The notes: generated from the sequence alone by a model not told the origin. Numbered from the stretch's first letter, positions 7,596 to 11,198 are shown. The stretch: DNA of 11,198 nucleotides from a virus (IMGVR_UViG_2734482782_000002:1-11198), one strand, 5' to 3'. Numbers and translations are program-made.

Positions 7596-7816
7596 CGTGA
7601 TGCCTCACGAAAAACAGCTCTGTATGCACGCAGCATGTCCCGTGACTTGCCGGATAAAACTGTCCTCAGGAAGAACATCCCGCTACGGGTTGCCACGATG
7701 CCGGGTGTGTGTAGCAGCGTGAAATCTACCACTCTGCTATGTTTTCGGAACTCAAACAGAGTGCTTGTGATAACGATGTTCGCCACGGCGCCATAGTCCT
7801 GATGTTGAATTTTCAT
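7592..7816 (-). CDS. hypothetical phage early protein (74 aa)
   Basis: ATGA start/stop overlap with the upstream gene at 7813-7816; AAGGA 6 nt upstream of the ATG. Confidence 0.55.
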   Translation of the reverse strand: MKIQHQDYGAVANIVITSTLFEFRKHSRVVDFTLLHTPGIVATRSGMFFLRTVLSGKSRDMLRAYRAVFREASR

Positions 7817-8034
7817 TTTCTGTCCTTCAGTTTGCTGTATCGTTCATGGCTCATTACTTCCCAGTTCTGGCTGCCGTCTCGGGACAGCAGTCGCCAGCGG
7901 CGATTAACCCTCAGGCTCAGATTTCCGGAGCCGTGCATTCGGCAGGGATGAATTCGCTTGGCTCTGAACTGGCGGAGTACATGGACCGCCTGCAGGTGTA
8001 CCCACTCAGGTATTCGTATCGCTGTCAGGGCCAT
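7813..8034 (-). CDS. hypothetical basic protein (73 aa)
   Basis: ORF track 7813..8157. Preferred start is the internal ATG at 8034, preceded by AGGAGAGAAGGACA. The longer version would overlap the next gene extensively in another frame. Confidence 0.45.
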   Translation of the reverse strand: MALTAIRIPEWVHLQAVHVLRQFRAKRIHPCRMHGSGNLSLRVNRRWRLLSRDGSQNWEVMSHERYSKLKDRK

Positions 8035-8218
8035 TGTCCTTCTCTCCTGCAGGTGGGGTGATCGTGTAACCGGCGCGTTCAGCCATCCATAAAAAAGTCT
8101 CCAGCGATGCTGTAACCTCTCCGTTCTGAACCGGGCGCGCGTGGATAACTTTCCCATTCTCGATTGTCAGCACGATATTTACTGGTTCGTGCGTGATAAT
8201 TGGTGTCTGATCACTCAT
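8006..8218 (-). CDS. hypothetical phage early protein (70 aa)
   Basis: ORF track 8006..8275. Preferred start ATG 8218 (MSDQTPII...) with GGAGA 6 nt upstream, immediately after the stop of the upstream gene. Confidence 0.5.
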   Translation of the reverse strand: MSDQTPIITHEPVNIVLTIENGKVIHARPVQNGEVTASLETFLWMAERAGYTITPPAGEKDNGPDSDTNT

Positions 8219-8867: not shown

Positions 8868-9254
8868 TCATATGAAGTGCCTCACAGCCAAAGAGGCGAC
8901 AACCCTTCCGTGTATACGCATGTCTTTTTGCTCATCCGCATTAAGCGTGAAAGTTTGGTAATGTAGATTGTCAGAAATAATCTTCAGCGCCCCGTCCGGA
9001 AAGGGTTCTATTCGCTTGATGAACAGGCAGTTACGGCCAAAAACATCGACCGTAAAAACATAGATGCCGGGTGTAAAAGCGCGCCCTCCACAATCAACGA
9101 AAGCTACAACCTCACAGGGTTCGATAGTCGGCTGCATTGAATCACCTTCCATCCTGCAGCTCTTAACTCTGTTTCCAAAATCATTAATATTGTCAGAGCC
9201 GAACAGCATTTGTGGTGCTTTAATTGGCTCGTTAAAAGAAAGTGAATTTTGCAT
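8868..9254 (-). CDS. standalone S24 (LexA/UmuD-like) peptidase-domain protein without an HTH domain
   Basis: ORF track 8868..9260; start probably the ATG at 9254 (GAGGAA 8 nt upstream). Contains GDSMQPT (Ser nucleophile motif) and a downstream ...FIKRIEP... (Lys of the Ser/Lys dyad), spaced as in the LexA/UmuD/cI C-terminal fold. No N-terminal DNA-binding domain. Confidence 0.6.
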   Translation of the reverse strand: MQNSLSFNEPIKAPQMLFGSDNINDFGNRVKSCRMEGDSMQPTIEPCEVVAFVDCGGRAFTPGIYVFTVDVFGRNCLFIKRIEPFPDGALKIISDNLHYQTFTLNADEQKDMRIHGRVVASLAVRHFI

Positions 9255-9315
9255 TTTCATTTCCTCGGGGTGAATTTGGTCACACCATTTAAGGTGTTTT
9301 ATTAATTATTTTTAT

Positions 9316-9534
9316 TTATAATGATTTAATTTCGAAGTTATTTATTTGTTCGTTTACTTCTTCTAATGTTTTTACAACTAAAGTAATTAATGCGTGTTCT
9401 CTTATTTCTTCCTCGGATGTCATTTTTTCAAGGAGTAACCATAATGAAGATGAACAACAAGTTATATCGTGCGCCCAACTCATGACCATAGAGCTTGTTT
9501 CATCTTTATTGAGAACTACAGTATCAGTTATCAT
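9316..9534 (-). CDS. hypothetical phage early protein (72 aa)
   Basis: ATGA overlap with the stop of the upstream gene (9531-9534); GGAGA 7 nt upstream. Very AT-rich 3' half. Confidence 0.5.
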   Translation of the reverse strand: MITDTVVLNKDETSSMVMSWAHDITCCSSSLWLLLEKMTSEEEIREHALITLVVKTLEEVNEQINNFEIKSL

Positions 9535-9746
9535 TGTTTGTTCTCCGGCCAGTCATGCCCGATTTCGCGATTTATAACTGAAAGATTTTTCTTTAATTGG
9601 TTGATGCAAATTTGAATGAGGGCTGCTGGCTTATAGCCAGTATCTGGATCAGATTCGGCATATTCAAGCACGTTTACCACGCGATCAATATCCATAGCTA
9701 GCTTGTGGATGGGACCATTTTCAGATACCAATTGTTGAGTGCTCAT
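9531..9746 (-). CDS. hypothetical protein, first gene of the leftward early operon (71 aa)
   Basis: ATG 9746 preceded by GGAGCAGGAAG; lies about 30 nt downstream of the predicted leftward promoter and operator. Confidence 0.55.
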   Translation of the reverse strand: MSTQQLVSENGPIHKLAMDIDRVVNVLEYAESDPDTGYKPAALIQICINQLKKNLSVINREIGHDWPENKQ

Positions 9747-9774
9747 CTTCCTGCTCCGTTTACTTGTTGATGAT

Positions 9775-9806
9775 TAAACAATACATAACGTATTAACAAG
9801 CGTCAA
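9775..9806 (-). promoter_or_regulatory. leftward early promoter (PL-like) with overlapping operator
   Basis: On the minus strand: TTGACG (-35, plus-strand 9801-9806), 17-nt spacer, TATTGT (-10, plus-strand 9778-9783). The 13-nt motif TACGTTATGTATT (plus-strand 9780-9792) overlaps the -10 and is identical to a motif in the cI-cro intergenic region. Confidence 0.5.
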
Positions 9807-9886
9807 TACAAAACGGATTAATCTGATGTATTAATTTTTATCTAGATGTTTATTAAGGCTTTTTTGTTCTATTTCGTGACGGAGGG

Positions 9887-9910
9887 AATAAAAAAAGCCG
9901 CTTTCGCGGC
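9887..9910 (-). terminator. rho-independent terminator downstream of the repressor gene
   Basis: On the minus strand GCCGC-GAAA-GCGGC followed by a run of seven T, starting 7 nt after the cI stop codon (9918-9920). Confidence 0.75.
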
Positions 9911-9917
9911 TTGTGCA

Positions 9918-10622
9918 CTATGGCAGGTTGGTTATTTTTGCATCGACCACGACGCCGATAATACGGCAATTACCATTTATGGGAATGATCGGGTATTGAG
10001 GGTTTAACGGCTTGAGGAATCGTTGACCAGCATCGATAACCAGCTTTTTGAAGGTGGCCTCGTTATCCCCATCGAGCTTAGCGACAACTAACTTTCCGTT
10101 GATGGGTTCAACCTGAGGATCGACCAGTATAACCATGCCTTCAGGAATGCTAAGCCCAGCTGGCGATGTCATCGAATCCCCTCTGACATCTAACCAGAAT
10201 GAATCTTCTGAACATTCCACGGTTGTATCATACCAGCGGTCGACCGCGCGCCTATGATATGGTTCTACTGCTTCCATCCAATCCCCTGCGCTGACCCAAC
10301 TGATTACGGGGTAGCGTCCTTTCGATTCATTCATGGCGTGAAATGACACATTGTGATCAGCTCTTGCGTCGCTCACTGCGCCGTCAGCGTCAACCACAAA
10401 ACCTGGCATTTGTAGAATTTTAAAAATTTTTGCTATGACCTCCAGGTTAGGTTCACGTCTTCCGTTCAGCCAATGGCCTAGCCCACCCTGTGTCATACCG
10501 AGTGCTTCAGCTAGCTGTTCTTGAGTCATTCCGACTTCTTTCATCCTGGATTTCGCCAGGTCCTGCCATCTCTGTTTCATAGACATGATTATTACAATCC
10601 GTATTTTTTGAGCAACTTCCAT
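9918..10622 (-). CDS. cI: prophage repressor, lambda cI-like (N-terminal XRE-type HTH plus C-terminal S24 autopeptidase domain)
   Basis: C-terminal ...GDSMTSPAGLSIPEGMVILVDP...ATFKKLV...FLKPLNPQYPIIP... closely resembles the lambda cI C-terminal domain as recalled. N-terminal ...MTQEQLAEALGMTQGGLGHWLNGRREP... is a helix-turn-helix. Start may be the ATG at 10622 (no SD, possibly leaderless) or the internal ATG near 10586. Confidence 0.9.
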   Translation of the reverse strand: MEVAQKIRIVIIMSMKQRWQDLAKSRMKEVGMTQEQLAEALGMTQGGLGHWLNGRREPNLEVIAKIFKILQMPGFVVDADGAVSDARADHNVSFHAMNESKGRYPVISWVSAGDWMEAVEPYHRRAVDRWYDTTVECSEDSFWLDVRGDSMTSPAGLSIPEGMVILVDPQVEPINGKLVVAKLDGDNEATFKKLVIDAGQRFLKPLNPQYPIIPINGNCRIIGVVVDAKITNLP

Positions 10623-10623
10623 T

Positions 10624-10668
10624 TTGTATTATTGTTTTATGTGTGTATAGTACGTTATGTATTATTTA
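10624..10668 (+). promoter_or_regulatory. rightward early promoter (PR-like) with operator, in the cI-cro intergenic region
   Basis: TTGTAT (10624-10629), 16-nt spacer, TATAGT (10646-10651), immediately followed by TACGTTATGTATT (10651-10663). Related ATGTATTA-type half-motifs recur in the region. Confidence 0.5.
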
Positions 10669-10684
10669 GATAGGAACTATCCGA

Positions 10685-10909
10685 ATGAGCGGTATTAAGA
10701 GCCTAAGGCTGAAAGCAAAAGTGACCCAGGGGGAGCTGGCAGCGTTGATCGCTAGCTCTCAAGGGGCCGTTAGCCACTACGAAACTGGTCGCCGAATCCC
10801 AGATATTGAAGTTGGGAAACGCATTGTGAGCGCCTTTAAGCAGCTCGGATATGAAACCAGTCTGGATGAGGTTTTTTCCGATGAACATACCGGAGAGCAA
10901 CTTCGATAA
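10685..10909 (+). CDS. cro: Cro-like HTH transcriptional regulator (XRE family)
   Basis: 74-aa ORF transcribed divergently from cI. HTH segment ...VTQGELAALIASSQGAVSHYETGRR.... AGGAA 8 nt upstream of the ATG. Confidence 0.8.
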   Translation: MSGIKSLRLKAKVTQGELAALIASSQGAVSHYETGRRIPDIEVGKRIVSAFKQLGYETSLDEVFSDEHTGEQLR

Positions 10910-11198
10910 CGCATTGCTGCCGGATACCCACTCAAAAGCTGATGCCGAGTGGATCAAGCAGCAGTTACTTAGCCTGACACCAACTGCACGACAAAAAGCT
11001 ATCCAGCGTTATGCAGCTGTGTATCAGGAGACGTTCGAAGCTGAACCCGTTTCCTACCGCAAGGAGAACCGGGCAAGGCATGAAGCAAACACAAGGCTTC
11101 GCCTGTTTGTGAGAAATCAGGGCAGAGCTTTACAGGGGTATACCGCCGAACCTCCCCTGGCTGGAACGCAATCGCGCTCCTCATTGTTTCGGGTTTAA
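10881..11198 (+). CDS. hypothetical early-right operon protein (cII position), function unknown
   Basis: ORF track 10851..11198. The chosen ATG at 10881 overlaps the cro 3' end by 29 nt; start uncertain. Stop codon TAA is the last three bases of the window. Family not recognised. Confidence 0.45.
   Translation: MNIPESNFDNALLPDTHSKADAEWIKQQLLSLTPTARQKAIQRYAAVYQETFEAEPVSYRKENRARHEANTRLRLFVRNQGRALQGYTAEPPLAGTQSRSSLFRV

Follow-up and report, generated by a model that had tools for sequence, protein, structure and literature searches.

Genes at the locus

The window, by which we mean the whole 11,198-nt stretch that was analysed (IMGVR_UViG_2734482782_000002), is E. coli DNA with a prophage located beside the ypjA autotransporter gene. 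The prophage carries a cI-type repressor gene and a cro-like gene, which are divergently oriented across a 98-bp intergenic region, and a terminator at the end of the former:

9918–10586, minus strand: cI-type repressor gene, 222 aa, N-terminal HTH_3 and C-terminal Peptidase_S24 domains, phrog_4
10685–10909, plus strand: cro-like gene, 74 aa, HTH_3 domain (E=5.8e-10)
9895–9912, minus strand: intrinsic terminator directly after the cI stop codon, 7-bp stem with 5 GC pairs, followed by a T-run

The repressor matches HTH_3 (E=3.9e-13) and Peptidase_S24 (E=5.4e-30) in Pfam and is a full-length homologue of the lambda repressor (3bdn; E=2.6e-40 over residues 7–215). Its Ala-Gly pair at residues 100–101 aligns with QAG of lambda, the autocleavage site, and the catalytic residues are conserved, with GDSM (Ser) and FKK (Lys) aligning with GNSM and FKK of the lambda protein. 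The recognition helix of the repressor is TQGGLGHWLNG. The corresponding helix of Cro (SQGAVSHYETGRR) resembles that of cI (TQGGLGHWLNGRR), and Cro matches the cI N-terminal domain with E=4e-10. The cI gene starts with two in-frame ATG codons (10578–10586). Given that both codons are conserved among relatives, that the intervening one is hypervariable (Ser, Ala, Thr, Gly, Asn, His or Pro) and that more distant homologues begin with MK(T/Q)xW, the sequence suggests that the true start is the second ATG, at 10580, and that positions 10581–10586 are untranslated.

The terminator, which is conserved in relatives, separates cI transcription from a predicted leftward promoter, PL, pointing into an early operon that starts with two small ORFs (9531–9746, the first, and 9316–9534) and further encodes an S24-only ‘CI-like’ protein, an ORF with a ParE-like domain, an excisionase and an integrase. 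The S24-only protein (8868–9260, minus strand; 130 aa, without an HTH domain) matches Peptidase_S24 (E=9.7e-9) and phrog_6201, ‘CI-like repressor’ (E=1.8e-37), and is retained in a sister prophage, where it is annotated as ‘S24 family peptidase’. We considered that this ORF might be a recent copy of the C-terminal domain of the cI of this prophage and rejected the idea, because no similarity between the two was detected by BLASTP; it could be a UmuD-like protein or a repressor modulator. The ParE-like toxin domain (PF24732, E=1.4e-18) covers residues 52–109 of the ORF at 7813–8157 (minus strand), the start of which is probably internal, since its RefSeq relatives are annotated as a shorter, 222-nt ‘ParE family toxin-like protein’. 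On the other side, the position of cII is taken by an ORF (10851–11198, plus strand) that overlaps the 3' end of cro and is truncated by the window edge. The ORF is a member of phrog_852 (unknown function; E=3.7e-39) without a Pfam match, and phages that are otherwise different, among them Fels-1, Fostie and Yersinia phage YP3, share it at 81–97%.

At the host side, the ypjA/ehaD autotransporter gene (2157–5546) is split into three ORFs of 330, 700 and 108 aa and lacks ~1.3 kb that is present in its intact counterpart of 4575 nt in E. coli 25-06685. At the junction, near 5061–5070, the two alignment blocks share 10 bases. The split gene is probably a pseudogene. Two perfect palindromes, AGGAGCCGCGGCTCCT (5589–5604) and CCAATCATGATTGG (5696–5709), which may be related to a terminator or an attachment site, are located between ypjA and the integrase gene. 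Scans of the window for tRNA/tmRNA genes, including the ypjA-side end of the prophage, and for Rfam families found nothing.

A shared dyad at the predicted early promoters

The initial annotation singled out an identical 13-nt motif in inverted orientation over the two divergent early promoters, and exact copies of TACGTTATGTATT are indeed present at 10651–10663 on the plus strand and at 9780–9792 on the minus strand. With the flanks included, 17 of 18 positions match, as had been stated (10651–10668 versus the reverse complement of 9775–9792), and the copies are embedded in a longer inverted repeat with 21-nt arms (9775–9795 and 10648–10668) that are 90% complementary. The ATAC/GTAT arms described for the motif are real and belong to a dyad core, AATAC-N5-GTATT, the 17-mer form of which, TAATAC-N5-GTATTA, holds the 13-mer inside. 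Related half-motifs likewise recur nearby (ATGTATTA at 9826–9833 and TTGTATTA at 10624–10631), and the search for more copies that had been proposed as a check yielded further dyads at 9804–9820, 10590–10606 and 10615–10631. Five dyad copies, including one matching at 7 of the 10 core positions, thus lie in the two intergenic regions flanking cI, where we assign the following putative operators and promoters:

9779–9795: putative operator OL-a, 17 bp, CAATACATAACGTATTA; core dyad 9780–9794, 10/10
9804–9820: putative operator OL-b, 17 bp, CAATACAAAACGGATTA; core 9/10
9826–9833: conserved half-site, ATGTATTA; TGTAT-TA columns conserved among relatives
10590–10606: putative operator OR-c (OR3-like), TATTACAATCCGTATTT; core 10591–10605, 9/10
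10615–10631: putative operator OR-b (OR2-like), ACTTCCATTTTGTATTA; 7/10, left half weak
10648–10664: putative operator OR-a (OR1-like), TAGTACGTTATGTATTA; core 10649–10663, 9/10
9778–9806, minus strand: PL-like promoter, TTGACG-17-TATTGT; 9/12 consensus match in a promoter scan
10588–10596, minus strand: candidate extended -10 of PRM, TGTAATAAT, inside OR-c
10624–10651, plus strand: putative PR, TTGTAT (10624–10629)-16-TATAGT (10646–10651); 8/12

The left copy of the 13-nt motif sits in OL-a and the right copy in OR-a. The centre-to-centre distances are 25 bp for OL-a/OL-b, 25 bp for OR-c/OR-b and 33 bp for OR-b/OR-a, and OR-b is 92% complementary to OL-b.

In 11 kb of DNA, exact 13-nt inverted pairs are not rare per se: at least one is present in 86% of composition-matched shuffles. 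The pair described here is the only exact inverted 13-nt pair in the window other than self-overlapping palindromes, and 0 of 300 shuffles had a pair whose arms fall into the two cI-flanking intergenic regions, one into each (analytic expectation, ~7e-4). It had been anticipated that a similar frequency of the motif elsewhere in the genome would speak against operators. Across the window, dyads with at most one mismatch number seven, compared to 0.39 expected; four of the seven fall into the two intergenic regions, and the other three are within host genes, at 1113, 3425 and 3593. Furthermore, the independent 39-kb genome of Klebsiella phage KPP5665-2, with ~79% identity to the window in this region, has three dyads with at most one mismatch, all of them in OL/OR.

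The conserved half-site at 9826–9833 may be a weak third OL site, one that would overlap OL-b. A left half is not recognizable for it, and there is no dyad match at up to two mismatches. A third full OL site, at 9817–9833 or ~9835–9849, was rejected, given that it would consist of the conserved right half-site alone. In nearly all relatives, a conserved block (9836–9870; ATC....TGTTT.T.AAGG.TTTTTT) lies upstream of the PL -35, in the stretch that separates the OL sites from the cI terminator; it could act as an UP-like element or be bound by another protein.

Of the predicted promoters, PL is the one recovered by the scan. Its geometry is kept in relatives as TTGATC-17-TATTGT, OL-a covers the spacer and the -10, and OL-b overlaps the -35. 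Neither PR nor PRM reached the scan threshold in the window, hence the absence of PR from the scan output, and the PR hexamers are our reading of the sequence and of the conservation of GTGTATAGT in close relatives, not a tool call. With these hexamers, OR-b would overlap the -35 of PR, and OR-a would cover the edge of the -10 and the likely start site; an alternative -10, TATTAT, is found at 10660–10665. In phage L and the Stx1 phage, OR-a contains the -10 of PR, and the -35 is located between this site and OR-b; the same arrangement was considered for the window (TTGTTT-17-TTATGT or TTATGT-17-TATTAT) but fits poorly. The candidate PRM includes GATTATTACA, which is conserved across relatives, and would produce a leaderless or near-leaderless cI mRNA from ~10580, placing the centre of OR-b near -42. 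A leaderless mRNA fits with 10581–10586 being untranslated. In phage L, AATAAT is located 6 nt before the c2 ATG.

Conservation, co-variation and alternative explanations

Among cassette-sharing relatives, namely, E. coli DX6 (96.6% identical), E. coli UMNK88 (80%) and seven Klebsiella phages (~79%), homology starts at 9775–9777, the outer edge of OL-a, which is thus the outermost element of the immunity cassette. The sister prophage in E. coli 25-06685 is 93–97% identical elsewhere, and a different cassette replaces window positions 9326–10937 (L122, 10969–12457). The swap points of the cassette are 9775 and ~10937. Because the two comparisons bracket OL, cI, OR and cro, these elements make up the exchangeable immunity module. 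The replacement cassette of 25-06685 encodes a cI with the helix SQGAVGHYLNG and a different cro, and its OL and OR still hold dyads of the AATAC-N5-GTA(T/G) type (e.g. AATACTAAAAGTATA), including the form AATAC-N5-GTATA.

Alignment of 35 distinct OR and 41 distinct OL sequences reveals a footprint-like pattern in which the sites are nearly invariant and the spacers vary freely. The three OR dyads are in register in all 35 OR sequences, OL-a is nearly invariant in the 41 OL sequences and OL-b is conserved, with the 6-bp spacer between OL-a and OL-b being hypervariable. Phage L, SEN22, the Stx1 phage, a Thorsellia prophage and locus L087, which are more distant but encode the same helix, likewise keep three OR dyads, spaced by 25–26 and 32–34 bp in otherwise unrelated DNA.

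To relate the dyads to the repressor, we scored 110 full-length loci from genomes and viral contigs for the presence of two or more dyads in the 150 bp upstream of cI and for the helix signature T[QK]G[GA]x[GS]HWL[NR]. The dyads were present in all 54 loci with the signature helix compared to none of the 56 loci with other N-terminal domains (Fisher p ~1e-32); with non-redundant sequences, the counts are 35/35 versus 0/37 (p ~2e-21). The 56 dyad-less loci encode the same type of C-terminal domain combined with a different DNA-binding domain. The same inspection recovered the expected operators as positive controls, that is, P22-type dyads next to P22-like N-terminal domains and the 434 operator next to a 434-like domain. 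It also found lambda-like AATCAC dyads beside Ser45-type Yersinia repressors.

It had been proposed that the motif represents OL and OR operators of the cI-like repressor. At the level of sequence, this interpretation is supported by the lambda-like length of the dyad, its presence in multiple copies at both early promoters, the conservation of the sites among variable spacers and the co-variation of the dyads with the DNA-binding domain of the repressor across the 110 loci. All sequence-level features of a lambdoid CI/Cro switch are found at the locus: the repressor with its cleavage residues, the divergent cro, the OR and OL clusters and the co-variation. Thus, this E. coli prophage very probably has a lambda-type immunity switch, with the 13-nt motif as the core of its operators. 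Points against the operator model are the poor left half of OR-b (7/10), the presence of only two full OL sites, the one-mismatch dyads in host genes, the scores of PR and PRM below the scan threshold and the 33-bp distance between OR-a and OR-b.

A different early regulator might account for the same pattern. If the sites were bound mainly by Cro, or by another early regulator, with the CI-like protein recognizing something else, the close relationship between the recognition helices of Cro and cI would be accommodated, and the occupying protein is not readable from the sequence alone. However, the dyad tracks the N-terminal domain of cI across the 110 loci, and no second conserved dyad family is visible in the OR or OL alignments, which makes this explanation very unlikely. 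Binding of Cro is in any case a complement more than a rival, given that CI and Cro of lambda share their operators.

An interpretation of the inverted copies as ends of a mobile or recombining cassette, where they would act as recombination sites or terminal inverted repeats, is similarly improbable. The 21-nt inverted arms do flank cI, and homology to the cassette-sharing relatives begins exactly at 9775. However, the right swap point (~10937) is past cro rather than at OR-a, there are additional internal copies (OL-b, OR-b and OR-c), and the cassette contains no recombinase, transposase or target duplication; furthermore, a mosaic junction beside an operator is expected if the flanking modules recombine.

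The similarity could also stem from common descent or duplication of two AT-rich promoter cores without a specific regulator, as both copies overlap promoter-like hexamers in AT-rich DNA. Such an origin appears extremely improbable in light of the dyad symmetry of the motif, its different placement relative to the -10 at PL and PR, the weaker copies where no promoter core is needed and the disappearance of the motif whenever the N-terminal domain of the repressor changes. Finally, there is a practically negligible chance that LexA, IHF or another host factor occupies the sites: although the repressor is a member of the LexA superfamily and SOS boxes are found in some prophage switches, the LexA box CTGT-N8-ACAG has no match at up to one mismatch in 9000–11198, and a host factor would have no reason to co-vary with the N-terminal domain of a phage repressor across host genera.

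The predicted switch and its relatives

In the switch that we envisage, dimers of the CI-like repressor would bind the 17-bp dyads, nAnTAC-N5-GTAnTn, through the HTH domain, and Cro would probably bind the same sites during lytic growth. Occupation of OL-a and OL-b would turn PL off and shut the leftward early operon, whereas occupation of OR-a and OR-b would turn PR off and shut cro and the replication genes. Located ~42 bp upstream of the likely start of cI transcription, OR-b could activate the maintenance promoter, and OR-c, which adjoins the cI start and overlaps the -10 of the candidate PRM, would turn cI down at high repressor levels. Upon DNA damage, RecA-stimulated self-cleavage at Ala100-Gly101 would release repression. 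Cooperative binding and looping between OL and OR may contribute. Nevertheless, cooperativity between the OR1-like and OR2-like sites in the style of lambda should not be assumed, because OR-a and OR-b are 33 bp apart compared to 24 bp in lambda.

The further claim of the initial annotation, that the motif defines immunity specificity, stands in part. The dyads do track the DNA-binding domain, but TAC/GTA arms are common to other cassettes and by themselves probably do not define immunity. Since the arms are shared with phage L, the Stx1 phage, epsilon34 and 25-06685, the outer and central bases must contribute if these cassettes are heteroimmune. Tentatively, the family of repressors with the HWLNG helix and TAC-N5-GTA operators might be wired unlike lambda, with immunity set by the outer and central bases, a scenario that we regard as unlikely, if conceivable. 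The case for unlike-lambda wiring comes from the OR1-like site, which would lie over the PR start, 32–34 bp (~three turns) from the OR2-like site, whereas the lambda-like 25-bp spacing is found between the OR2- and OR3-like sites and between the OL1- and OL2-like sites, and from the presence of only two full OL sites; the case for immunity being set outside the arms comes from the several probably heteroimmune cassettes that share them. Cooperativity at OR might then couple OR2 with OR3 or require same-face contacts over three turns, and the switch would follow a different order of occupancy and a different logic of autoregulation.

Overall, the locus is an ordinary lambdoid immunity region, a textbook feature of temperate phages which leaves the understanding of phage switches unchanged, and only the OR spacing, which departs from that of lambda and is conserved across the repressor family, is mildly unusual. 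The value of the analysis lies in the annotation of the regulatory core, that is, operators, promoters and cassette boundaries, of an uncharacterised immunity type which E. coli, Klebsiella, Enterobacter and Citrobacter prophages commonly carry. Such annotation could help to predict superinfection immunity and the inducibility of prophages, and to design reporter or repressor parts.

As regards lambda, the two repressors are homologous over the full length: both combine an HTH domain with an S24 domain and share the Ala-Gly pair, the Ser and the Lys. Both loci also have divergent cI and cro genes and a terminator between cI and PL. The putative operators are 17-bp dyads, three of them at OR, as in lambda; OL-a and OL-b are centred at ~-17 and ~-41 of PL, similar to OL1 and OL2, and the strongest OL and OR sites are nearly identical, as are OL1 and OR1. 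The half-site, nAnTAC, resembles tAtCAC of lambda, the difference being T instead of C at position 4, which could be linked to the Gly that is aligned here with Ser45 of lambda, judging from the known contacts in the lambda co-crystal. The layouts also differ: OR-a is predicted to lie over the PR start and not in the spacer, there are two full OL sites instead of three, OL and OR are separated by ~870 bp compared to 2.4 kb, rexAB is missing, and Cro is an all-helical HTH_3 protein. As for P22, its C2 provides the closest named match to the C-terminal oligomerisation and autocleavage domain, and the repressors of P22-like phages and mEp235 show ~60% full-length identity to the cI of the window, carried by this domain. 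By contrast, the N-terminal domain and the operators of P22 C2 are unrelated, and loci with P22-like N-terminal domains carry dyads of the ATTTAAG-N4-CTTAAAT type and no TAC-N5-GTA dyads.

Literature searches with the operator strings returned only the epsilon34 genome paper and an unrelated cancer preprint, the operator sequence of the window appearing in no paper, and we found no study of cognate-repressor binding for any phage with TAC-N5-GTA operators. The only EMSA that we found, on VT2-Sakai sites, was performed with lambda CI, not with the cognate repressor, and binding was weak, in the micromolar range (PMC10742460). Two candidate relatives were rejected: the 933W repressor, which resembles that of 434, differs in its helix and has operators of 15 bp (PMC3317979), and BAA2326, which has unrelated operators and a repressor of another class.

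Judging from its sequence, the switch of the window is a member of the TAC-N5-GTA operator class within the lambdoid CI/Cro family, a class that has already been predicted or annotated elsewhere. The members share the helix signature T(Q/K)G(G/A)x(G/S)HWL(N/R), represented by TQGGLGHWLNG in the window, TQGAIGHWLNG in phage L and TQGGIGHWLRG in the Stx1 phage, as well as 17-bp operators with the half-site nAnTAC and a 5-bp centre, and OR spacings of 25–26 and 32–34 bp. For epsilon34, WTACRAWWTGTAT have been proposed as operators, with the same TAC-N5-GTA core, and relatives of its repressor's N-terminal domain are found in phages L and VT2-Sa (PMC2629481). In the record of the Stx1 phage, 17-bp putative operators of the same kind are annotated (AAGTACATATTGTATTT, ATGCACAATGTGTATTT and TATTACGCTCTGTACTG), although the Stx1/VT2-Sakai repressor is only ~46% identical overall to the cI of the window, and its C-terminal domain is lambda-like, not P22-like. 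The closest named N-terminal domains are those of c2 from phages L, ST64T and SEN22, which show 58% identity to the cI of the window and contain the helix TQGAIGHWLNGRREP. These phages carry the same dyads (AGTACGAAATGTATT, ATTACGAGATGTATT and AATACAAAATGTACT) with the same three-site OR spacing, 26 and 34 bp. They differ from the window in the central 5 bp and the outer bases of the operators, in the presence of P22-type nut sites and gene 24 and, at OL, among themselves, with three sites in SEN22 and two, 30 bp apart, in phage L.
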